A stretch of 57,697 nt of DNA, counting the filler, from Catajapyx aquilonaris (taxonomy: Eukaryota), in assembly GCA_000934665.2 (NCBI GenBank). It is 2 parts of 2 records of this genome, joined end to end, with 100 filler letters (N's around TTAATTAATTAA, not from the genome) between each part and the next. Parts side by side here need not be neighbours in the genome. Positions count along the whole stretch, not along the records: positions 28,821 to 57,697 come from JYFJ02004889.1; 1 more part is not named here. One strand, given 5' to 3'. Within the stretch, counting starts at the first letter, position 1. The number at the start of each line of letters is the position of its first letter. Both the position numbers and the translations under genes were made by a program. A model generated the notes under the pieces. The model was not told where the DNA came from. It did not search any database and saw only the letters and a program-made list of their open reading frames with translations. This document shows, one piece after another, positions 13,001-56,689 of the stretch.

Positions 13001-16000
13001 TCTTCCCCATAGTAGCAGGGCAGGCCCTCTGTATCGGCAGGGTCAATCAGGACACCAAGCTTGTACTATCGCTGGACGACCCAGTCGATGGATTATATTT
13101 CATTCTAATTCTCGCTGACCAACCTAATTGTAGGGAAGCTTGAGAGGCAAGAGTCATTCTAGGTTGGTTCTAATAGATTTTTTCAACCACAAGGCTTTTT
13201 TGGGGGCAACCATAGCAGGGGTCGAAATATTTGAATGCACTCCAAACAGAGCCTTGGAGTGCAACGTATGCACTCCAGTTGGTCCTGCTTTTAAACATTG
13301 CTACATCCAGTAATTAAAAATTAAGCACTCCAAGTAAGTAATTTGCACTCCAGATGAACATCTGGAGTGCAAACTTTGCACCTGGACAAAAATTTAAGAC
13401 TCAACGCCTGCCATAGGCAGTTAGTGTTTAGGCATTCTGGTCAGCCATTCATGAGGTCCTGTTTAAAATCACAGGACTACAATTCTGACATGGGGATTCT
13501 TGTTTTCCCTGAACAACTCCAGGATAATTCTGGAATGGATTCCTTTTTGAATGACCATGGCTGCTTCCTTCCCTGTCATTTTCTGTGAAATATGTTGTAC
13601 ACATTTAGGCTACACTTTCCTTACCTGCTCCCTTCGTTGCTTTGTCATTATCATCCTGTTCAGGAGTGATTCGGTTCCTTGGAGCCTTAATGCATGTGTC
13701 CCTTCTAATGAACCACATGTATAAATCTACTTAGAAAGAAAATGTTTTATGCACAAAATACAGTCGGTATATTCCCTTTTATAACATGACAACAGCAAGT
13801 GAACAGAATTGTGACTGCTGTTTATAAAGTCCTAAGACCAGTCACATCAGAAAACAGGTAGGCCATAGAAAATGCAGCGAAACCTGCTCAAACTGTGCCA
13901 CAAATTGTACCTCAAACTTTAGCATGTATGTAGACTATTAGTATACCTACAGTTTTATGTGATCATTATTTTTTTGAAATTGAAATTTTTGTCAGGTGAC
14001 ATGTGTCAAGAACTCTGATATTTACTAAGAAACCTACTCGGCAGGCAACAAGTTGGACTGCTTTGGTGTGGCGTTGGCAGTGGTGGCTGGTTGCCAGGTC
14101 CTTGGCTTGAATGATGTTCACCTCTCCCTGTCAGAAGACCATGCCTGGGTGGTGTTTGGTCCTCGAGACTCCCCCTCTACTGCAGAAGTCACCTGGCATG
14201 GGAAAGGGAATGAGGACAAGCGTGGGCAACCCATAGAGGCCGGTGTGTGGGCCAAGTCATGGCTGTATCTCAATGGCCAGGCTGTGGTGTGTACTCGAGC
14301 AATGGAGGTGGCTGCCATGGTGGCGGCAGTGAACCCCTCCATCAATGCCTCCACTGACTCTTTGGAGGTTGCTAGGATGCAACAAGACCTGCTGTGGCTC
14401 CTATATGACTTGGGACACATCACCAAGTATCCTATGGCCATTGGTAACCTAGGTGACCTGGAGGAGGTCAGCCCCACGCCTGGTCGAGCAACTCCCACTT
14501 CCCTATTTCAAGAGGCTATAAACGCCACTCGTACCTTTTACAACAATCAGCACGTGTACCCCTACACTTTTCGTGGTGGTTACCTCTACAGGAATAAGTT
14601 CTACAAGGAAGCACTTGAGAGCTGGGCCAATGCCTCTGATGTTATTAGGCAGTTAGTATTTTTTGGGTTGTTGGATGTTGCACCTCTGTTTCTTGTGAAT
14701 CATGTGAAGGGTGTTTTTATATTTATTTTAAAAAGGAATTATGTGATTGTAGAAGCAATCTGTGAATGTGTATGTGCCAATGGAGAAGAAAAAGATAATG
14801 GTTCATATATGAAGAAATTCTTTCCAAATCTCTCAGACCATTTGGTTTAGGTAACATAACCTTGTGAGATGACCATTAGATTCTGTATCATGGATATCGT
14901 GTGTGCATACTGAATCAGGTTGATTTTTTGATTTCAAGGCACAGGGAAATGCCTTCACACACTGCTCTGTTGTTTCTTTTCCCCTACTTAAGTGCAGGAG
15001 TATTCACATGGTTTGGGACTATCCACAAAATTTACATAAAAGTGGGTCTGAGCTCTCTTTTTGTACCACAAGACTAGTGCATTTGTAACCTTTGGTTCAG
15101 CTGCTGGTAGGTCTACTCATAAACCATAGATAAAGAATGGACTTCTGTAAGTAGATCTTCATGTGGTTCCCATGGTATTATCGGGGCAGAAATGGCACGG
15201 ACACTTGTCAGTGGTCAGCTTACCCCCTATAGTGTCCATACCATTTCTGCGCTGATGGTACCTTTTGAATTCCAACCGCTGCATATTCACCAGTTTCCCT
15301 AATTATCAATCATAGTGCCAAATTATAAATTACAAAATGTTTCACACTAAATTACTAAACCATCTTAATGTTTTCTCTTTGCCTGTAATCACCCCTGTGA
15401 CATGAGAACTGGAAAGTGGTCTAACTCCTGTACATAAGCTACTGAAATTGAAAGGAAAGAAATTTCATGAGCAGAGAAAATGACAAAATATTATTATCGA
15501 AACACCTACAAAAAGAAGGAAGTTGATTTTTAAAATATATTTAGAATCGTGTTTTGTCTTGGTACAGATTGATTTCTTATGATTTTTGGCTGAAATACTA
15601 GCTAATATAAAGCCACAGTTGCTGCGAAATTTTTGTTAAAAACATTAGTAGAACTAAGGGATTAGCAAATTATACAGGGTGTTTATTACTAGAATGGCCA
15701 ACAGCCATTAGTGTATTCCTTGGGCCAAAACAAGTCAAAAATTTAGGGGGGAGAAATGTTGATGGACCAACCATTAACGTGGTAGATGACCAGAAACATT
15801 GGCTGGTGGTTGCCTAAGGAGCAATATGTGACCGGTGATAATCACTTCTGTGAAAGAGGTGATCTCACAAATCCCAACAGTCTCGATTATCATGCTCATA
15901 TCCTGCTCCTTAAGCAACTACTGACGAATTTTAAAGTGATGAACTGTAAGTCACTTTGTAGTGTTACATCCTACTTTGGAGGCATGATGTATCAAGGATC

Positions 16001-19856: not shown

Positions 19857-22800
19857 GATACCCTGTGACATTATTCCAGTAATTAGACTGAACCACGACT
19901 GAATTTCAGTATGTGCAGCCAAGAATAAAATTGGGGGGGAATGGGCCAAGTGAGACAACACTTGGCCCTGCAACAAGCTACCGTATTTACTCGGATATAA
20001 GACGCACACGCGTATAAGACGCACCCCGGTTTTGAGGCGAAAAATCGTGGAAAATCGGTTGTTGACGTATATATGACGCACCAACACGTGGCTGGCTCGT
20101 GACGACCTGCCGCGCACACCCTCCGGCAACATCAAGAGGGCCGCCCCGACAGTCATTGCGGGCTGGGTCAAATCTGCCTGGGACAACCTCAACCCGGAAA
20201 TCATCACTCGGTCATTCAAGAAGTGCTGCCTCAGTAATGAGCTGGACGGAACCGAGGATGACTTGCTGTGGCTCGACGACGACGCCGATGAGGAAGCGGC
20301 CGTGCAGGACGACGATGACGACTCGGATGGGGATGACGAGGATCCAGAGACGGCCAAGGAGAGCGACGATGACTGATTCGAATGTGCGATGTTTTTACAT
20401 TTTTCAATAAACGATTTTCATGATTTCTCACGGGTTTCGCCCTTTGTGCCCTGCCGTATAAGACGCACACGCGTATAAGACGCACCGTACTTTCTGAGCT
20501 ACAAAAATCGGAAAAAAAGTGCGTCTTATACTCGAGTAAATACGGTACTTCTGCGAGGGACCTTTGAATTTGGAGACGGAGGCGCTATTGAGCGTGCGGG
20601 ATCTGTTGTCACTCATATATTTAAAATGGCTACGTAATGCATCTTGTTACACTCACCAGTGAATTCTATGCATGTGATTTACCCACTGAGTGATTTTGGT
20701 CCAAATACGTTGGTGTCAACATTGCGGCCTTCCCTTGTAGTGCTATTCCAATCTTCTCCATAAGAAGGCAGTAAATAATTAAGTCCGGATGTCCAATATA
20801 TTGGACATGTGGTCTCACCAAACTAACTCTTCTTACCCTCCTAAATTTTGAAAATCTTTGGATTTTCTAATTCTGCTTGACCTATAGTGTTGTGCAAACA
20901 TCACCTCTGATGCTAATTTTCACATTAGCAGGGTCAAAATACAATCCAAAAGACCGAAAATTCCGAAATCACAACACCTGCGTCTGGTCGCGGGTGGCAG
21001 GTCGCCGGTCCCGGCTGGCCAGTCACAGGTCGTCATGACTGATATCAGTGATATGTAAATGATTGATTAAACTTGATTCATAAATTGTTACACAAAATCT
21101 ATTTCGAAGCTTGTGAGGTCATATTCTACTTTCTTGCGCCACCCTAGAGCGCGCTATAGTCCCGGCGACCGGGGACCTGTGACCTGTGACCGGCTGCTAT
21201 GTGTTGTGGCTTGGGAATATCACATTAAGCTTGTATTTTGAAGTGAAAATTAGCAACAGAGGTGATGTTTGCACAATACTATAGGCCAGCAGAATTAGAA
21301 GATCCAAAAATTTCCAAATTTAGGAGGGTAAGAAGAGTTAGTTTGGTTGTCAGGAGGTTAAGGATGCACTCAGTCTTCTCTAAGTAGTCATCATTGATAG
21401 GTTTAAGCCAGTTGCACTTATTACATACACAATTCAAAATAGGCTTGTAGTAAAATAAGATTTTCCACTTTAACCGTCCAGCAAGAAAACCTGAAAGTTG
21501 TACCTGTCGTCATTAAAATTTTTTTTATATCATGAATTCTCACTATAGTCAAGTTCTCATTATGTTTCTTAATCCTATTTCAGTTTGATGCCGATGTGCG
21601 AGCCCAGGTTGAAATAGATGAAGGGCAGCTACAGGAGCGCCACTTGGAACCCCCGTCTTCCACCTCTCCTCCTGTGAATGCTGCTCCAGATGAAGCCCCA
21701 AATGCCACCGATGCCTCTGACGTGGTGGGGAACAACAACACAAAAGGATTTGCCTCTGCAGAACTGATCCGCAACCTGGAGTCCCAAGTGGGCTCCTCTG
21801 AGGCTCCTCCACATCCATCCATTGCAGCACTTACACAAGCCTGTGGGGAAACCATTCTTAACCCAGGGTATCTACTGGGAGTCAGTGGAGGGGAACCATT
21901 TGTCAAGGCTCCAGGTTAGTTACAGGAAAAAAATGTTTTTTCCGAAGTTATATTTACAGAGACCATGGTTGGTTGTTTTGGGTAGAAATATAGGATAGGA
22001 CTGAAGTCAGAGCTAGTTAGAGCTTTGGGATGTGCGAAAAGGGACTATCCTTAGATGTTGGCAGCCTGATTTTGTGTCTTACTCATGTACTATACCCACA
22101 TGCTCCTTGGCCCCATCATTCATATATCAGTAGTTATTTACATTATTTTGCCATCACATTTTCTCTAACAATGATACAGACAGTTTCAGTAATAAGATTT
22201 TCATTGAACTCCATTCTGTACTGGCAGAGACCAGTTTTCCAGCTAGTGCATGATAATTTCACTCTTCAGACCTTCATGCCAGTGCAGCATGGAAAGTTTA
22301 CAGCCCACTTTTTTTTTTTCTTCTTCTTCTTCTTTTTTATATTTTTTACTTGGATACGTCTTTAAAATCGGATCAGGGGGCATGCAGGCAAAGGCGAATG
22401 TCACAGAAAAGCGTTACAGTCAGGGCCCTGCCAAGGGGCCTTGCCAGGGGCCCCATGGCAGGGCTAAAATCGGATCCGCATAGGGGGGGCATGCAGGCAA
22501 ACTCGAGCGTTACAGTCTGTTATTACCGAGTATGCTATAACTGACAGTATGTTACCTGCTCATTACGTCACACATATATACTTCCCCGCCCTTTGCACAT
22601 TACGTCACACATACTCCCCTCCCCTCTGCTCACAACATCACACACACTGCCCCTCCCTCTATGCACTGATGTCATCAAGGGATCAGGGGGCATGCAGGAA
22701 AACTTGAGCTTCACAGAAAAGCGGTACAGCAGGGCCCGGCCGGCCCCATGGCAGGGGCATTGGGGGGNCTGGGTAACGCTTTTCTGTAACGCTCGAGTTT

Positions 22801-28720: not shown

Positions 28721-28820
28721 NNNNNNNNNNNNNNNNNNNNNNNNNNNNNNNNNNNNNNNNNNNNTTAATTAATTAANNNNNNNNNNNNNNNNNNNNNNNN
28801 NNNNNNNNNNNNNNNNNNNN
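28721..28820. other. Artificial assembly spacer (N44-TTAATTAATTAA-N44)
   Basis: Exactly 100 bp and symmetric; the central 12-mer places stop codons in all six frames. Confidence 0.95.
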
Positions 28821-45028: not shown

Positions 45029-45658
45029 TCAAATCATTCTCTCCTTTATTTTCATAGCGTCGTCGTAAGATGGCGGACATTCCTCCGCTGTATAAGATGG
45101 CGGACTTTCCTTCACTGCAATATCTGTCGATGAAGATGTCTCCTGATGATGAGACATCTCGTCACTTCCTCTCGTTACCCCCTCCGGTTCCTCCTCCGAT
45201 TCCTGGAGGCACTTGTCATTGTTAATTACTGCACGAATGTATGACCCATGCTCCTTTACCTGATGCGCAGGAACTTGATCGCTGATCACTATGACCACAC
45301 ATTCATTCTCATTTGGTGCTGAACGTATCAAAAGTACTTCTTGAGGTATGTCGTCGATTCTAGCAGCCGTGGCACAACCGCAGCAGATGACCCACAGGAG
45401 TCTGATTACCAGGATAGCCACTAGTAAGCCTGAAGAAATATCCAAAATTAATGACGTGCCAATAGCAACATTTCTGTATGTCGGAATCAAAAAAAATGCA
45501 GTTTGTCCACCAAGTAACGACACTGACAATTAACATCACTGATTAGCAGATGTTTCTTGCTTACATATTTTTTTTAAAATAACTGTGTGAGTTCCACATT
45601 TCTGTGAAGTAGAAAACTTCTTACCTACTGGAGGGCCTGCTGCGTAATAATAACTCAT
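45029..45658 (-). CDS. Array gene B: short N-terminus, single TM, two PPSY motifs (~125 aa)
   Basis: Exons 45658-45625, 45429-45260, 45202-45029: MSYYYAAGPPV-GLLVAILVIRLLWVICCGC...DQVPAHQ-ESEEE...ESPPSYTAEECPPSYDDAMK. Confidence 0.75.
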
Positions 45659-46862
45659 GTTGTTTGGTCGTCCTCTGCACAGGCTGCTTTGTCAACAATA
45701 CCAAATGTCAGGTGTCAGATTTGGAAGCTGAAAATTCGACAGGCTTGACACCTGTTACAAGCGTGCAATGTTTGTACGATTAAGGAGAAAATATGGATTT
45801 ACAGCAGTCCCAGTACTTATTGGATTAAAATGAAATTTGACACCCCATTGTCAGCAGGTCGCTGACTTCAGATCTAGTGTCAAAAATAAGAAATTCAAAA
45901 TGGCGGACTCATGAGAAAAGTTACATAATCATCACCCAGTGCAGTGCAGTGGGAGAAATAGTAAACATCCTGGTAAAATTTGTAATTGCATCATATCCTG
46001 CCTGGATGGGTTAGATCTTTCCCACACATTATATTGAGCAGTTCTCTTGTTCGTATCCTTGTAACTTTGGTGTAAAAAAAATGATATGCGTGTTCTGTAA
46101 GGTACACACATATGACGCAATTTGGGGAATTGGTGCAAGCACGAGCAAGAATTTATTTCGCCTCCTGATTACAATCAAGACAAAGAAGTTATTGAAGGAT
46201 TTTGCGGATAAAATCTAAGATGAAATTTACTTACGCAAAAGTAGTTGCATGTAACGTGACAATTCCTTCTTGTTCAAATAATCAGTAAACTTCTGATTGC
46301 AAATGAAAGAACACGCTCAGAAGTACATTATAATGGGGGTAAAACAATCATCATCACCTTTCTCTATTGAAGCCAAGAGACAATCAAATATCTTGGACCG
46401 CACTGGCACACTGGCTCTTGTTCTACTAATACACCGTGAGATACTAGTCGTAGGAGCTAATATAAACATTTCAGCGTGTTGCTGTACGAACCAGATGGAA
46501 GACTCCGCATTCCTTTTTTAACGATATGACACTGTTGCCAAATTGGTATTTCGACCATGTTTTTAGATATTTCTCACACTGTGTAATCGGTTAAAAAAGT
46601 AAGTGGAAAAATGAAAAATAGGGGAAGGTAATAAATAAGCTTATGTTCCATTTTGAGAATGACCTCAAGTTGCCTTGGTTTGTGGTTCTTGTGGGTATGT
46701 TATCGTAACACTGACTTGGTGATTCCCCGCCAACTTCCTTTACAACATGGAGAGGAAGGAGCAGTGGTTAGCAGTGGTCAATGGAAGACAAGGATCCGCT
46801 GAGAGGGGTGGAGATTCTAAATATGAAAAATTGCAAACTCGCAAAAAAATGCTACACCGAAA

Positions 46863-46960
46863 TCACTTGTAGTTTTTGACGTCTTCCTCGTAACAAGCCG
46901 GATTTTCCTCCACAGCAATCTTTGTCGGCAGTTTGTTGAAGTATCTCATGACTTCCGCTC
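46863..46960 (-). pseudogene. Orphan exon-3 remnant of the array family
   Basis: Reads ...KIAVEENPACYEEDVKNYK*, homologous to KITVEENPPSYEEAT of genes D/F. I found no matching exons 1-2. Confidence 0.5.
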
Positions 46961-47239
46961 GATTTTATGAGCGTAAAATTTCACTCGTATTTTTGGAACA
47001 TTTTGCGAGTTGTGCGAAGATTATTATTAGCGTACAGAGCGAACGTATGATCTATTCATATGACCTTCTAATGTGCAGATACTTTATTCCAAGGTAAATA
47101 TGGAAAACGGTAGACAGTGCGACAATGTATATAGGTTCATATATATACACATTTTATTAACCATCTACAGGTCTACACTAATGCCAGCAATCCTGAATAT
47201 TGTTTTTATCAGCAAAATCATATTGACAAGTAGATTAAT

Positions 47240-47824
47240 TTAAGGCTTCTTTTGAATACGGAGAGATTCCTCGTACGAAGGCGGATGCTCTTCTGGAGGA
47301 TGTGCTGGACAGCAGTCCCTTGCACTATTCACATTGGCTCCCTGAAGAGTTGTGAATATTTTGCAATAGTTAGTGAACATTTTGTGCTGCCTAAAGAATA
47401 ATTATGCTTGTTCAGTTATCAAAATTATGCTAGTTCAACTTACCAGGGATGCAGGAACTTCATGGCTGACCACGCTGACCATACTGTCTGGTGGTATCAG
47501 CAATACCCGTTGGCGGTCGCGGCCAAGGCGGTAGCATATCCACCAGATGAGGAACCCGAGTTTAAGTCCTCCGACAATCGCAGCTATGCCTGTGGAACAA
47601 TCCAAAAATTAATGAAGCGGTAACAGTCTTCTGAATATTTTGCTTCAAAATGCACTTTGTCCACCGAGTATTGAAATAATTAGCAATGGCACAAAGAACT
47701 TAATAACATGTTCTAGAGTTTGAGATATTAATATCGCTTCAACAATATGTAGTATGACAGGCTCTGAAGAATTAATATTTCATACAATCTCTTTACCTAT
47801 AATAGAGTACCCCTGGTAACCCAT
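47240..47824 (-). CDS. Array gene C: short N-terminus, single TM, PPSY (~91 aa)
   Basis: Exons 47824-47797, 47589-47444, 47341-47240: MGYQGYSII-GIAAIVGGLKLGFLIWWICYRL...HEVPASL-GANVNSARDCCPAHPPEEHPPSYEESLRIQKKP. Confidence 0.72.
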
Positions 47825-48182
47825 AATGCAAAGTTTTCTTGAAGAAATACACTGAATGGCCAGTGCCGATTTAAAGAAGTAAATTCAAGCACTGCAGATC
47901 TGACGACTTGGTGTCTTCAGTTGCTTTTGTGCAACGCTTGGAGGAGGAAGCAAAGATGCAGTATTATCAGCTTCATAGTACCTTATCTTGAATTAGTGTG
48001 GTTTTTCTAATCTATTTCTTCTTGGTTGGCATCCTGGTAACAATATGAGGGTTGCCAAATGATGAAAAGTCCCCGAGTTTTATTTACATAATTGCGCAAT
48101 ATTGTCTTCTGTGTTTGGAGTGTAATGAGATAAAAAGCTATTGAGTATATTTTTAATTCATTTTAAGGGGTAGCTCTTCCAG

Positions 48183-48790
48183 TCAGGTCTTGTTGCTTCT
48201 GGTGGCTTCCTCGTACGAAGGAGGATTTTCCTCGACTGTAATCTGTGTCCGGGAAGGAATTTGTTGCAACTGGTAATGAGACATCTCGTAATTTCCATTC
48301 ACTGAGGCGTCCATTTCCTACAAGCAATTTCCATCATAATTTATTAGTGAACGCAGATTAATATACGTTGTGTTAACGGTAGGAATACAAAGCGAATACA
48401 TGATTCTCCTCACCTGGTGTGTAGAAACTTGACCGTTGACCACTCTGACCACACATTCATTCTGTCTCGGTTCCGACCCTATCAGCAGTGTCCGTTTAGG
48501 TGTGCGATTGCAGCAAGTTCTGATGCATCTCCAGATCATGAATTGCAGGAGGTTGAATAGCAGGAAAACTAGTATGGTTATGGCTGCATAATAATACAAA
48601 ATTAATAGTGTCAATAGCGTAACGAATATTTCGTATGTCGGAATGAAAATGCAGTTTGTCCATCAAGTGATGACATTGATGGCATGAAGATCTTCAAAAC
48701 GATTTTGATTTTGAAAAGGAACAATATTGCATAAGCAAGAGCATCAGCGGAATTCTTACCTATCGGGCCGAATCCGTTGTAACCACTCAT
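48183..48790 (-). CDS. Array gene D: short N-terminus, single TM, PPSY (~111 aa)
   Basis: Exons 48790-48760, 48583-48414, 48317-48183: MSGYNGFGPI-AITILVFLLFNLLQFMIWRCIRTCCNR...QVSTHQ-EMDAS...EENPPSYEEATRSNKT. An in-frame upstream ATG at 48928 is an alternative start. Confidence 0.78.
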
Positions 48791-49011
48791 GGTGCTAGCT
48801 CGTCCTCGTCTGCACAAGATGCTTCTTGAACAGTGCTGGACATTAATGGTGTAGCGCCACGAGCCGGTGTTTGCAGAAGAGAGAATCGAAGTGATCAAGT
48901 GCGAGCAAGTGCGAGTATAATAAGTCATAGACCCCTGATAGCGTAACTGGCTGCTCACTCTTTCAAAACACCCTGGAGATATCTTTAGTGTGGTTTTTAC
49001 TAATCTATATA

Positions 49012-49340
49012 CAGGGTGTTTCAACTTTTTTGTCCGAACAGTTATCGGAAAATTGCACGTAGCTGCTACTTTGTAAGCAGTGACTTGCAAACGGTGATTT
49101 TTCGGAGGAACGGGGAATATCCCCTGCGAATCGTAGGTTGAAGTGGCATACGTGCTGCCCGCTGAAAATTGAAGGTCAAGCCTGGAAAAAAGAGGGTCAC
49201 ATATGCCATGGGATGTGTGACCCTCTTTTTCACCATTTCCCATTCCTCCGACAAACCACCGGTTGCAAGTCACTGCTACAATGTAGCAGCTACGTGAAAT
49301 TTTACGATAACTGTTCGGACAAAAAAGTTGAAACACCCTG
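49012..49340. mobile_element. Tc1/mariner-type MITE upstream of gene D
   Basis: ~57-bp terminal repeats CAGGGTGTTTCAACTTTTTTGTCCGAACAGTTATC... flanked by TA. It is absent at the paralogous sites ~52020 and ~48010. Confidence 0.88.
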
Positions 49341-49575
49341 TATATATATTTTTTCCATTTGGAGACATCTGAGTAATATCATGGGGTTTTACACGTAATG
49401 GAAAAGGTACTGGGTGAGTTTCGTGTTCATAATTACGTAATATTGGCTGGCCTGTTGGCAATGGTAATTATTTTTGGTGTGTTATTTCAATGTGCAAAAA
49501 AAAAGCACTAGTGCACTTCAGAAGTCTAATTAATTTGATGTCAGTGAATGACATAAACCTCTTCCTGCATTATTC

Positions 49576-49650
49576 AATATAATAATATATAATATAATAA
49601 TATAATATAATATAATATAATAATATGATAATATATAATATTATAATATA
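49576..49650. repeat. (ATATA)n microsatellite
   Basis: Imperfect pentanucleotide tandem repeat. Confidence 0.85.
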
Positions 49651-49998
49651 AGCATATGAGGTACTGATGTATAGTATGGAACGTTGAATAATTACCGGGA
49701 AAAGGCTTATTTTTATAAAAGTGTTGAAACCATATGAAACGTATTACTCAATTCCGAACATTTAAAATGATTATATTCCTAAGCATTTGATGCGGAAAAA
49801 GGGAAAAAATTATAATTAAGTTTTAAAAAAATCAAAATATATAGGGAGAAAATTAAACAAAATCAGATTTTATTCACTTAAAAAATGACAGGTGCATCAC
49901 ATACGTGGAAAATAGTTTGGTCTACGGCTTTTATTTTCACCTCTTCATTCCACATTTCATTGGTGAAAAGTTACTCCATTTATAAGACGTTATTCGTA

Positions 49999-50684
49999 TT
50001 ATTGCTCATCTACGAGTAATTGCATTGATGTAGATGGACTTGGGTGAGTTGTTTCCTCATATGAAAATCGGTCCTCTGATGGAAACCTGTAAGATGATCG
50101 GACATGTCCCAACTCACGAGAATCGTTGCCAATCCTTCCCACAGGACACTGCGGTGAGGAAAATTATTAGTTAATACCATCTTACAATATGAAGGCTTAT
50201 AGATGTACAGTATTTTAATTAAAATAATGTCAGACACAGTATACGGAAGGTACAAAATTATCTCGATAATGCACAAACAATTTCTGCACTTCTTATACCT
50301 GATGTGCAGCAGCCTGGTCGGTACTTCGTGTGGTTCGCACTCGTAAAGGTATCGGCATGTTTCCTCGAAGTTCTCCGCCTTCATAACTCCTCCTGCACTT
50401 GTAGATGCCCCATACTACTATCAGTACAGTGAATGCTAGCCCTATGTAAAAGAGAACCAAATTACTAACCCCAGGTGTCCATTACGTGTATTGTTGCAAA
50501 ACTCACATCCTATGGCGGCGTATATTCCGTATTCATATGGCGTAGGTCTGATAATGGGTTCGCTGAGACACCGTTGACTAGTGGAGCAGTACCACTCGGT
50601 GCCCAAACAGCATGTTTCCGAATCCTTGCATCGCAACTGACCACCACACGATTTTGACCCGACCAAGCTCCAACTTCCGGACAT
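49999..50684 (-). CDS. Array gene E: 6-Cys N-terminus, single TM, PY motif degenerate (RFSY) (~156 aa)
   Basis: Exons 50684-50507, 50441-50299, 50148-49999: MSGSWSLVGSKSCGGQLRCKDSETCCLGTEWYCSTSQRCL...YAAIG-WLAFTVLIVVWGIYKCRR...AAAHQ-CPVG...PSEDRFSYEETTHP. Confidence 0.75.
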
Positions 50685-51308
50685 GATAGTCTGGTGCTGT
50701 ATACGGACGTCTGTGCTGTCTGTGCTTACTGTGACTATGATTTTGTGACTTCCTTTACATCAGACGTGTCTTAAGTGGGCGGTACCAAATGACATTACCA
50801 TATCAAAGAGGGCACTAATTGGCCGGTGGAACGACCAGAGTCACATTTGACTGATTTTGAGCCATGATGGTTTGAACCTTGAAAATTGCACCATTACGGG
50901 ATAATTACAGTATTTTCAATAATTACACTAAGGGACTCTAATGTCTTACTGTAACAACTGACATGATTATTATCAGAAATGGTTTTATTCAATATTGACC
51001 AAATGTGACTCTGATCATTCTGGGTATGGGTTGCATAGTTCAATTTCGGGGCACGCAATAAAAACCAGAAATCAGCAACTTTTATGTTTGTATATTGTAC
51101 AGATAATTTTAATGTGTAGAGAACATTGAGTGAGGCTGGAGTATTGTTGTGTTTACTCGTATAGGTCTATTATTGTATGACAGTTAGCAACAGTTAGCAG
51201 CAGTAGTAGCAACAGATTGATGTAATATTGCCTGCTAATTACTATACTTCCGGATGTAGATGCTTTCCGACCTTTGAAACTTTGTAACATTGCGCATTGT
51301 TGCTCCAA

Positions 51309-51810
51309 TCACGTCATGTTGCTTCTGGTGGCTTCCTCGTACGAAGGAGGATTTTCCTCCACTGTAATCTTCGTCTGTGAAAGGATTTGTTGCAACTGGC
51401 AATGAATCTCGTCACTTCCGCTCACTGAGATTTCCGTTTCCTGCAAGTATTGGTAAATAGTGAACATACTGTATAGATTTGTATACATTGTGCTACCGAA
51501 TACATTCGCCTTACTTGTTGTGCAGACACTTCATCACTGACCACTATCACAACATTGTCTCTCGGTGTCGACCCTATCAGCAGTGGCTGTTGAGGTGTGC
51601 GGTTGCAGCCAGTTCTGATGCATCTCCAGCAGATGACACACATGAGTTTGATTAGCAGGACAATTACGGCTAATGCTGTAGAATAATCCAAAATTAATAG
51701 TGTCATATTTTGATTTTGGAATGATCAACTCCAATAAGCACGAGCTTCACATTTTGTGCACCTTCAGCGAAATCCTTACCTATCAGGGAGAATCCGTTGT
51801 AACCACTCAT
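51309..51810 (-). CDS. Array gene F: short N-terminus, single TM, PPSY (~107 aa), close paralogue of D
   Basis: Exons 51810-51780, 51675-51515, 51440-51309: MSGYNGFSLI-ALAVIVLLIKLMCVICWRCIRTGCNR...EVSAQQ-ETEIS...EENPPSYEEATRSNMT. Confidence 0.78.
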
Positions 51811-52531
51811 GGTGCTAGTATAGGTAGTCCTCTGTACAGGCTACTATTGGAGCAATACCAATGGTCACTATACTGTCGATTTGAAGCAGTAAATTCTGGG
51901 TCCTCGGATGGACGGACTTGACAGCTTCTGTTGCAAAGTGTGCAATGGTTGTTCGATTCAGGAGAAAATATGGATTTGTAGCAGCTTGCACAGTGCGATA
52001 TCTTAGTGTGGTTTTTCTGATCTATTTCTTCTTTAGCGGCATCCGGGTAATATCACGGGATTTTCCACATAATGGGAAAGGCACTGGGTGATTTGCATGC
52101 ACATAATTACGTAATACTGACTTTCTTGTTTGGGGTAGAATTTTTGCTGTATTTTTAATTACTAAATGTGCAAAAAGCACTATAGTGCACTTCAGAAGAC
52201 CAATAGTGATATGCCAGTGAATGACATATTCTAAGCTCTTCATGCAATGTTCAATATATGAGCATATGAGGTAACGTACATGACGGAACATGGAATAATT
52301 AGCAGAAAAAACACCGTGGAAAAAAGCGGCATGATGGATTAAAATAATAATAGTCTGCCCATTAATATGAATATTACCAAACGATGCGTCACGCGTCGCG
52401 TCGGTAAATGGAAAATAGGCTACTAACTTCTGCTTAGTGCTTTAAATTTTTTTTTATATTTTCACCTCATTACATTTCATTGGTGGAAAGTTACTACGTT
52501 TATGTAATCCGTAATTTGCATTATTGCAAAT

Positions 52532-53337
52532 TTATTTAATTGCTGTAGGTGGACTTAGGTATTGTCCCTTGGTAGTCTCTTCACATGAAGGTGGCTTGTC
52601 TTGAGATGGAAACCTGGGAGATGACTGGAAGTGTTCCAATTGAGAATAGTTGCCAGTTTCTTCAGTTATAATAATTGCAGGAACCTGCAGTGTAGAAATT
52701 ATTGTCGATTATTCAACACCATTTTAATCGGCTGTTATATATACCCTATAGTGTACAGGCTGATGTTTAAGACGCGATGAAAACCTATGGCTGTTTCAAA
52801 AGCTAGCTAGATTCAACTCGGTAGCATTATCAAAAAGTAGGCTACATTGGGAAGGCAGAGCTTACAGTATATGGCTTTGATAATGTTTAAATGATATTAT
52901 ATTCTCCAACCAAGAAGGGACCATCATATCCTGTACTTCTTACCTGATGTGCCACAACCTGAAGGCAATTAGGGTTGGTACTGTGTGTAGTTTGCACTTG
53001 CAGCACATTTCCTCGACGTTCTCCGCAGGCAGGACTCCTCCTGCATTTGCATATGATGCATGCGACAATCAGTATAATAAATGCTGCACCTGTGGAAGAG
53101 AACCAAGTTACTAACCAGTCAGCCGGACTGGTGTGTACGTACTGTACGTGTAATGTTGCACTCCTTACATCCTATGGCAACGTATGTTGGGTCATATTGC
53201 TGAGTAGGTCCACTAGTGCACCGTCCACTCGTTGTGCAGTATGAACCATTGGTACCCAGACAGCATGTCTCCCAATTACTGCATCGAAATTGACCACCAC
53301 ACTGCTTAGACCTGACAAAGACCAAACCTCCGGACAT
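52532..53337 (-). CDS. Array gene G: 6-Cys N-terminus, single TM, PY motif mutated (PPSC) (~155 aa), close paralogue of E
   Basis: Exons 53337-53169, 53089-52944, 52684-52532: MSGGLVFVRSKQCGGQFRCSNWETCCLGTNGSYCTTSGRCT...YVAIG-CAAFIILIVACIICKCRR...VVAHQ-VPAII...QDKPPSCEETTK. Confidence 0.75.
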
Positions 53338-53812
53338 CTCTGGTGCTGTGCAGCGATTGTTAAGTTCAAAAAGTAGATGTGCCGTTCTTGCACTTTTTAT
53401 CATAAGACTGGTTTTGTGATTTCCCGGTAACTTCCTAGAAATGTAATGCCATTGCGTTCATGCGCAGGGCTTGCGTTTTTTCCCACAGAAAAATAAGTCG
53501 GAAATGTTACCGTCAACATACCCCACCTCATCTTAACTTGAGGTTTGGTTGCGATTTTATCATGCGAGACTTCCTTAGGTTGGTTCATTTGTGGGTAAGT
53601 GAGGGGTACCACTGTGCATCAATGGTCTTAGCTTTGGAAATAAATGGAAATCTTTTTCTATATGTACCTACTATTTGCTTGTAAACTTGAAGGCACGAAA
53701 TGCACGATCACAATCTCAGTTTGATCAAAATGATTCAGTTGATTTCAGATATGCTGTTCAGATTCATCCACCTATTTATTTCGTGAAAAATCAATTTTAA
53801 CAATGTTTCACA

Positions 53813-54380
53813 TCACATTTTGGCAGCTTCACTGTACCCAGGTGGATCTTCCGTTGTCATTTGAGGTAAGTTGATGTGCTGGGGCATTGTAGCGTAAGTT
53901 ATTATGTCCTAGAAATAGACATATATTTGGCGTAATTGATACAGATATTTGCATACGCGTATATGGAAAACACACATTTTCACGAACACGAAATACTGGT
54001 GTTCTTACGTACCTATACAGTAAATATGGCTTACGTAAATACTTGAACCCTTCCCACAACTCTGACTTGATTACTCTTGTACTACTATCACTCTCTTTCT
54101 GGAGAGGCATCTTTTGCAGACCGCAACTAACATCAGGATAGTGAAGATTATTGCAACTGTAAATATTCAGTAACATAACACAATGTCATTGTTGTGGAAG
54201 TGCAAGGCAGGATATTTTGGGCAATTTTTTGATGCGACATCGTAACAACTTACCTACACTGCTCACAGTTATTGAGGTGCTGTGTGACCCAGAATCTGTG
54301 GGGTCCGTAGGTTCATCATCAGGAATTTGAGTGGAATTTGGCAAAATGGTGCTCCGTAATAAGCTGTAGTTTTGAAACAT
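53813..54380 (-). pseudogene. Array gene H: Ser/Thr/Pro N-terminus and TM, premature stop in exon 2, intact-looking PPGY exon downstream
   Basis: Exon 1 54380-54254; exon 2 from 54156 reads VAIIFTILMLVAVCKRCLSRKRVIVVQE* (TAA at 54073-54071); exon 3 53908-53813 reads DIITYATMPQHINLPQMTTEDPPGYSEAAKM*. Paralogue of J. Confidence 0.6.
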
Positions 54381-56099: not shown

Positions 56100-56689
56100 T
56101 CAAGTGTCGATTTTGACAGTTTCAGTATACGGAGGTGGATCTTCTGTTGTCGGTTGTGGCAGTGATTCCTGGGGTTGTGCCTGGGGCAGTATATGGAGAT
56201 CAGTAGCCATGTTTGTTACTGCCTGGAAATAGACACCAAATTGTAAGCACATATTCGCAAAACACCATTACGAGTTACATTGCTCCACGATACATTTTTT
56301 GAATTTTTTTTGACAACCTGTGGTTCTCTTACCTGCATTTGAGTTAGATTGACTTGAACCATTTCCAAAACTCTCCTAGGGTTCCTCTCTGTTGCCGGTG
56401 CCTCCTCTGTGGTCTCTGTCTGTTTGAAGCAGCAGATACGGGCGCACCGGCAGCACCATACGAATATCAGCGCAGAGAAGAATAATGAAACTGGAAGAAT
56501 TCAGTAGTATAACACAATAATTCCATTCTTGTGGAAATGCAAGGCAGACTTTGCACAATATTGTAGCTTACCTAGACTGCCCCCATACAATGCGGTGTGT
56601 GACCCAGTAGGGTCAGTAGGTCCATCATATGGAAATGCCGTGGTGTTTGGCGAATTGGTGCTCCATAATAAGCTGTTGTTTTGCAACAT
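56100..56689 (-). CDS. Array gene J: Ser/Thr/Pro N-terminus with N-glycosylation sequons, single TM, PPPY (~132 aa)
   Basis: Exons 56689-56572, 56490-56333, 56222-56100: MLQNNSLLWSTNSPNTTAFPYDGPTDPTGSHTALYGGSL-VSLFFSALIFVWCCRCARICCFK...LTQMQ-AVTNM...TEDPPPYTETVKIDT. Confidence 0.78.

Follow-up and report, generated by a model that had tools for sequence, protein, structure and literature searches.

A tandem array of small PY-motif membrane protein genes in Catajapyx aquilonaris, two members of which lost the motif separately after a block duplication

Whether a receptor arrives at the cell surface or is removed from it is decided by small membrane adaptors carrying a PY motif, among them Commissureless (Comm) of insects, the Shisa-like proteins, Ndfip and PRRG4; their rapid evolution makes it difficult to recognise new families. 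The Shisa-like (STMC6) superfamily comprises Shisa, WBP1/VOPP1, TMEM92, CYYR1 and Drosophila CG15760 (PMC5578492, PMC10531659). Its ectodomain is described there as carrying six cysteines (Cys) in the pattern C*C*CC*CC, and CG15760 as having an N-terminal signal sequence ahead of the Cys domain; the same source gives an aromatic four-residue motif within the transmembrane (TM) segment (PMC5578492). The PY motifs of Comm bring Nedd4 into a complex with Robo1, which leads to Robo1 degradation, and Comm serves as a substrate adapter for Nedd4 (PMC12101832); the motif is given in an extended form, LPSYDEAL in Comm and LPSYEQAV in PRRG4, a functional analogue of Comm (PMC5578492). Here we describe an array of ten small genes within a stretch of 57,697 nucleotides (nt) of the Catajapyx aquilonaris assembly GCA_000934665.2, the whole of which, two parts joined end to end, is called the window below; the array lies in the part that comes from JYFJ02004889.1. 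We consider that these genes probably represent a lineage-restricted, birth-and-death family of at least ten Nedd4-type PY adaptors, two of which, genes E and G, are PY-less derivatives.

The ten genes were delineated by three-frame reading and spliced models and are lettered A to J by rising coordinate (Table 1). All of them lie on the minus strand, with gaps of 349–1581 nt between neighbours, and the array reaches past positions 45029..53337, the interval considered in an earlier note on this DNA, its outermost genes being A, at 43.8 kb, and J, at 56.7 kb. Each gene has three coding exons and introns of phase 1 and then phase 0, the introns being 57–259 nt long and of the GT-AG type in 19 of 20 cases (intron 2 of I, with GC-AG, is the exception). 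The products, of 91–164 residues, are single-pass proteins without a signal peptide: one hydrophobic segment was found in each and a signal-like N-terminal core in none of the ten, the best 8-residue Kyte-Doolittle mean within the first 25 residues being 0.77–1.91. In eight of the ten genes the 12 residues that follow the TM segment carry a net positive charge, and from this a type III topology is predicted, with the N-terminus outside and the tail cytoplasmic. The tail carries a Cys cluster directly behind the membrane segment and acidic residues following the PY motif, which itself lies 8–21 residues from the C-terminus in every gene except E and G, where there is none. Six-frame translation of the whole window yields 15 PP.Y words, nine of them in the last exons of array genes, and this enrichment is not due to chance. 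A tblastn search with the proteins of A–I (J excluded; E<0.05) gave no match in the window outside 43.8–56.7 kb.

The earlier note had claimed that family members keep either a Cys-rich ectodomain or the PY motif. For the genes it listed, A–G and I, the reciprocal pattern was recovered in the spliced models, where A alone combines a Cys-rich N-terminus (eight Cys before the TM segment) with an intact PPTY. E and G have a 6-Cys N-terminus and read RFSY and PPSC, respectively, at the aligned PY position, and B, C, D, F and I have PPSY (twice in B) with only 4–12 residues, and no ectodomain Cys, ahead of the hydrophobic segment. The division into two types is nevertheless incomplete, since H and J form a third class in which a Cys-free ectodomain of 36–37 residues, with two N-glycosylation sequons in each protein, is combined with PPGY (H) or PPPY (J).

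The short N-termini of B, C, D, F and I are coded by separate first exons of 22–34 nt, each with its own ATG. The in-frame ATG of the TM exon of F (window position 51706, minus strand, inside intron 1) reads TTG in D, and a mini-exon is therefore needed; that of D and F is the best-conserved piece which the two genes share, with 90.9% identity along 55 nt that take in both ATG and donor. In F itself, the intron-1 ATG would offer an alternative start immediately before the membrane segment. It is unlikely that the short genes have an undetected upstream exon encoding a Cys domain, because they possess this start-codon exon of their own. A coding exon further upstream was rejected as well: the conserved CAG precedes the ATG by 16 nt in B, 19 nt in D and 21 nt in F, and there is thus no common frame. 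In-frame stops lie 11–22 codons upstream in B, C and F, and two codons upstream of the ATG in A.

Several further features of the gene models were noted. The TM segment of E is interrupted by intron 1, which is 65 nt long. In G, an in-frame ATG lies 22 codons upstream of the conserved start (window position 53403, minus strand) and has no counterpart in E. Intron 2 of B (45203–45259, minus strand) is 57 nt long, in frame and stop-free, and may be retained, in which case the tail would gain 19 residues. A recurring word resembling TGTACAG, TGTGCAG or TGCACAG stands ahead of the start codon: its end is 8–21 nt from the ATG in the case of B, D, E, F and G, and in A, C, H, I and J looser versions occur at distances of up to about 55 nt. 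It may serve as an initiator-type start site or as a splice acceptor, either of an intron in the 5' untranslated region or in trans-splicing.

E lies directly upstream of D, and G directly upstream of F, the stop codons of E and G being 1208 and 721 nt, respectively, upstream of the ATG of the following gene. The earlier note had read this arrangement as a pairing of the two types, which takes one event for two, since a single two-gene block is present in two colinear copies, E+D and G+F. In a self-comparison of the window by blastn, five colinear matches link 48178–50700 with 51304–53349. Exons 2–3 of D and F are 73.9% identical, the intergenic piece common to both blocks 73.6%, exon 3 of E and G 69% and their exons 1–2 67%; the global identity of introns and flanks is uninformative, since this scoring aligns even unrelated 150-nt pairs at 70%. 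In a tree built from the residues of the shared exons 2 and 3, E+G is the only strongly supported sister pair (98/97), and D and F are sisters with weak support. The colinear segments and the tree together therefore identify E-D and G-F as copies of one block, and their adjacency as a single historical event. The longer spacer between E and D is mostly due to a 349-nt inverted-repeat element at 49002–49350, which the spacer between G and F lacks.

The element at 49002–49350 has arms of about 117 nt that are 88–95% complementary, separated by a 116-nt loop, and resembles a miniature inverted-repeat transposable element or a hairpin insertion. In the comparison of D with F, the 17 codons that surround PPSY contain a single synonymous difference. 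Elsewhere in the array, the first exons of B, C and F are preceded by about 150–260 nt of DNA that is 68–71% alike (45666–45807, 47864–48121 and 51823–52136), and the duplications therefore took promoter-proximal DNA along.

The state of the ancestral block can be approached through the codons at the PY position, which are CCA CCT TCA TGT in G and CGA TTT TCA TAT in E. As G retains both prolines and E the tyrosine, the ancestor of the two genes carried CCA CCT TCA TAT, an intact PPSY. By this reconstruction the codons show that the PY motif was destroyed twice, after the block duplication, through one change in G (TAT to TGT) and three in E (CCA CCT to CGA TTT). Since both lesions postdate the duplication, the ancestral pair of a Cys-type and a short-type gene had a PY motif on both of its genes and was not split into a receptor and an adaptor.

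The ancestry of the ectodomain was considered along the same lines. A, E and G have in common an RSK.CG motif and the spacing C, C, CC, which argues that the Cys domain is ancestral to these three genes. In E and G the pattern is C*C*CC*C*C, the last two CC pairs of A having their first Cys replaced by Y and R, and the Cys state changes at least twice on the tree. The short first exons keep the ATG and end in ATAG before a GTAAG donor, similarly to those of E and G, which end in ATAGGAT before GTRAG; the short forms probably arose through loss of the Cys-coding middle of exon 1.

Whether E and G are still maintained as genes bears directly on the meaning of their PY loss. Both retain the ATG, four canonical splice sites, the full open reading frame (ORF) and all six ectodomain Cys, and their exon lengths differ from each other by 9, 3 and 3 nt, all multiples of 3. 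The ratio of nonsynonymous to synonymous divergence (dN/dS) between them is 0.58 (bootstrap 95% interval 0.34–0.95; 1.8% of replicates at or above 1). In neutral simulations with 0.27 substitutions per site, half of the E-G synonymous distance, the share of the 5000 runs in which ORF and ATG survived was 0.14% for E and 0.92% for G, all N-terminal Cys being preserved in about 1% of runs; at a quarter of the synonymous distance the ORF survived in 2.3% (E) and 5.5% (G). Long neutral decay of E and G is therefore excluded and only a very recent inactivation is still possible; purifying selection probably acts on their reading frame and six Cys, and the genes are probably expressed, with a PY-independent role.

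Decay is evident in other parts of the array. A remnant of the family's exon 3 at 46866–46925, in which NPACY stands where PPSY is expected, looks like a dead family member between C and B. Compared with J, exon 2 of H (54020–54161 against 56320–56495, minus strand) shows gaps of 9, 14 and 13 nt and an in-frame TAA; only use of a weak donor, GTGATA at 54091, keeps H open, and the gene may be a pseudogene. The relic and the damaged H together point to birth and death within the array.

In the history that we favour, an ancestral form with a Cys ectodomain of the A-like C*C*CC*CC type would have given rise to the ectodomain-less genes B, C, D, F and I, the start codon and phase-1 donor being retained as the middle of exon 1 was lost. 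A two-gene block of one Cys-type and one short-type gene, both with PPSY, was duplicated once to yield G-F and E-D, and each Cys-type copy then lost its PY motif by a lesion of its own. By analogy with Comm, the Shisa-like proteins and other PY adaptors, HECT ubiquitin ligases of the Nedd4 family are most likely recruited by the PY-bearing members through binding of WW domains to the PY motif, and the recruited ligase could steer these proteins and bound membrane cargo to endosomal degradation, with the ectodomain or the membrane segment selecting the cargo. E and G, as judged from their codons, cannot dock a WW domain at the lost PY site. Because they stay constrained without it, a ligase-blind variant or some other PY-independent role would be the most economical account, and they could act as competitors or modulators of PY-bearing members or of their cargo, for which obligate partnering with the neighbouring gene would not be required.

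The subfunctionalisation inferred in the earlier note retains part of its basis, in that the reciprocal pattern is present and E and G look like living genes; the part that falls away is the pairing, which goes back to one event and to an ancestor with PY on both chains. Its fuller form, in which E and G bind a ligand and pair at the membrane or juxtamembrane level with D and F, which bring the ligase, appears to us rather improbable. The complementarity of domains is real, the constraint on E and G makes it probable that they are functional, both types were duplicated together and are still adjacent, and the PY motif is gone from both Cys-type copies, as a division of labour would allow. Against this, the adjacency reflects one historical event and not two, the ancestral pair had the PY on both chains, and B, C and I have no PY-less Cys-type neighbour, B adjoining A, which carries both a Cys domain and PPTY. 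We would also give little credence to the broader notion of a two-chain membrane module that arose by tandem duplication and complementary loss and is inherited and duplicated as a unit, in which E and G sense the ligand and the neighbouring D and F recruit Nedd4, or in a variant of which spliced ectodomain cassettes are placed on PY tails. A further reading holds that the genes are not independent and that the first exon of E or G is spliced in frame to exon 2 of D or F, or that the genes are co-transcribed, so that Cys-ectodomain proteins with PPSY would result. The identical intron phases in all ten genes, with first introns of phase 1, would permit such splicing, the genes are spaced by as little as 349 to 1581 nt on one strand, and the CAG-containing word upstream of the ATG is acceptor-like as well as initiator-like. 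However, no gene lacks an ATG exon or a stop of its own, E and G keep complete open exons 2 and 3, and at least one polyadenylation-type hexamer (AATAAA or ATTAAA, although these are common words in AT-rich DNA) lies within 373 nt of the stop of every gene; we regard exon mixing as very improbable.

Several observations weigh against the birth-and-death reading with two functional PY-less derivatives, and some of them favour a further alternative, namely that recent pseudogenisation or relaxed constraint after duplication affects E and G, and perhaps also D and H, the loss of PY being the first visible damage. dN/dS is high across the family, at 0.5–0.8 among closer pairs, and that of D-F (0.81, interval 0.42–1.67) is indistinguishable from neutrality. 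Private changes number 25 in E and 11 in G (chi-square 5.4), so that E evolves significantly faster and may be drifting. A functional motif has been destroyed in both E and G, and the array does shed members, as the relic at 46866–46925 and the damaged exon 2 of H attest. We nevertheless consider this alternative unlikely, because start codons, splice sites, ORFs and six of six Cys are intact in E and G, the exon-length differences preserve the frame, and survival of a neutral ORF would be below 1% per gene over the full time since the split and 2–6% over half of it. Other difficulties concern the history itself. The proportion of synonymous differences (pS) is 0.21 between D and F and 0.385 between E and G, with a bootstrap 95% interval of 0.03–0.32 for the difference, and such unequal divergence is not expected from a single block duplication without later gene conversion or another cause. 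A single clade of the five short genes is not rejected (approximately unbiased test, p-AU 0.33), yet support in that part of the tree is low, and the proposed deletion within exon 1 is based on short similarities, an alignment of the first exons at the DNA level being too short to resolve it. Nor did homologue searches place the family: a search with the B ORF returned 53 candidates, none at E<=0.01, an exon-2 profile scored against longer proteins gave none at E<=0.1 among 8000 candidates, and an exhaustive profile search of 1.84 billion representatives gave one match, which was unrelated; the queries were exon-sized pieces, which lowers sensitivity, and the nearest sampled species are distant, so these blanks mean neither novelty nor absence.

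Other searches with exon-sized queries gave the following results. The one match of the exhaustive profile search, a 621-residue protein with PPGYEEAL repeats, was rejected as a homologue, since it has no membrane segment and the match is confined to the PY region. A sequence search of the PDB with the Cys exons of E and A returned only chance-level matches (E = 0.47 and 0.68), and a protein-language-model atlas gave no usable match for exon 1 of E. An hmmscan against Pfam, run with eight exon-level ORFs (E<=1) and with 18 pieces of exons 2 and 3 (E<=10), detected no family apart from Comm, and thus no Shisa, WBP-1, CYYR1 or TMEM52 domain; Comm (PF15957) was matched by one of the 18 pieces, from B, in the PY region alone, and the score of 12.8 bits (E = 0.15) is below the cut-off of 27. 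A model of the G ectodomain built by AlphaFold2 from three aligned sequences has a mean predicted local distance difference test score (pLDDT) of 57.9, with four short strands at about 70 in residues 11–40, and as a model it is too weak for fold comparison. The array is filed as a putative new lineage-specific family of small PY-motif membrane adaptors that is a member of neither the Shisa-like nor the Comm group.

Table 1. Genes, relic and duplicated blocks of the array, in window coordinates (exons in order of transcription).
Feature	Coordinates	Strand	Exons and characteristics
Gene A, 164 aa	43834..44679	-	44679-44508 / 44398-44253 / 44010-43834; 8-Cys ectodomain C-x5-C-x6-CC-x5-CC-x6-CC, one TM, PPTY
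Gene B, 125 aa	45029..45658	-	45658-45625 / 45429-45260 / 45202-45029; 34-nt first exon, PPSY twice
Relic of family exon 3	46866..46925	-	NPACY where PPSY is expected; frameshift upstream; no matching exon 2 found
Gene C, 91 aa	47240..47824	-	47824-47797 / 47589-47444 / 47341-47240; short N-terminus, PPSY
Gene D, 111 aa	48183..48790	-	48790-48760 / 48583-48414 / 48317-48183; short N-terminus, PPSY
Gene E, 156 aa	49999..50684	-	50684-50507 / 50441-50299 / 50148-49999; 6-Cys ectodomain, RFSY at PY position
Gene F, 107 aa	51309..51810	-	51810-51780 / 51675-51515 / 51440-51309; short N-terminus, PPSY
Gene G, 155 aa	52532..53337	-	53337-53169 / 53089-52944 / 52684-52532; 6-Cys ectodomain, PPSC at PY position
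Gene H, 95 aa as modelled	53813..54380	-	54380-54254 / 54156-54092 / 53908-53813; Cys-free ectodomain, 2 N-glycosylation sequons, PPGY
Gene I, 113 aa	55023..55570	-	55570-55549 / 55485-55322 / 55178-55023; short N-terminus, PPSY, GC-AG intron 2
Gene J, 132 aa	56100..56689	-	56689-56572 / 56490-56333 / 56222-56100; Cys-free ectodomain, 2 N-glycosylation sequons, PPPY; paralogue of H
Duplication block 1 (E + D)	48178..50700	-	five colinear blastn segments against block 2, 67-91% identity
Duplication block 2 (G + F)	51304..53349	-	colinear counterpart of block 1

The remainder of the window holds neighbouring genes of housekeeping types. Exons at 8–42 kb are assigned to menin, which a search confirmed, and presumably to RACK1, a catalytic subunit of PP2A type, a zinc-finger protein of DNLZ type and a mitochondrial carrier. 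The menin exon at 14029–14850 matches invertebrate menins at 56–74% identity, no vertebrate sequence being among the best 120 of 763 matches, and in a tree of 20 rows it lies on a long branch outside a set of lophotrochozoans plus deuterostomes, which makes the source an invertebrate that has no near relative in the protein library searched. Runs of N occur at 22768, 28721–28764 and 28777–28820.

The array is of interest because a single locus displays three ectodomain states on one conserved tail, together with two independent losses of a ligase-docking motif in genes still under selection. It thereby offers a natural experiment on the role of a PY-less protein, which could be that of a decoy, a competitor or a partner. 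If the PY-less copies are expressed and modulate the PY-bearing ones, they would add a regulatory layer to the biology of Nedd4 adaptors; as it stands, the array is a tidy and unsurprising case of birth and death in a lineage-specific family.

How, then, does the array relate to described proteins? The best atlas neighbour of B is TMEM52 (PF14979), a small chordate single-pass protein, with a score of 0.89 and 164 of 256 features shared; this is a lead only, as the score falls under the atlas marks of 0.9 and 170 features and no exon translation has a TMEM52 match in Pfam. PMEPA1 and LDLRAD4, two related single-pass vertebrate proteins with PY motifs, one with a Cys-rich (LDL-A) ectodomain and the other with almost none, offer a parallel to the ectodomain states seen here. 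They differ from the array in that both retain the PY motif, are not in tandem and have another ectodomain fold. LDLRAD4 is a weak atlas neighbour (0.80), with no sequence similarity to the array shown.

Compared with the Shisa-like proteins, the array proteins are likewise short and single-pass, with an N-terminal Cys-rich outer domain in some members and Cys in or directly after the membrane segment. Gene A shows the C*C*CC*CC pattern plus one extra CC, and E and G show it in part. The tail PY ([LP]PxY), read as a docking site for Nedd4-family ligases, is present in eight of the ten genes, once or twice in each. The array differs from these accounts in lacking a signal sequence, in having no common four-aromatic motif in the TM segment (that of A contains a single F) and in giving no Pfam match to Shisa, WBP-1 or another Shisa-like model; moreover, half of its members are without any ectodomain, and its genes stand in tandem.

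The array departs from Comm in the Cys-rich ectodomains of A, E and G, which Comm does not have, in the first residue of the motif, which is P in the array and L in Comm, and in the Pfam score, which is below the cut-off and was obtained for B alone. The Cys-free members, seven of the ten genes (B, C, D, F, H, I and J), look more like Comm in being short and single-pass without a signal sequence, although these features are not Comm-specific. The PY is followed by acidic and then by small or hydrophobic residues and resembles the extended motifs of Comm and PRRG4, the array proteins reading PPSYDDAM in B, PPSYEEAT in D and F, and PPTYDQAV in A.

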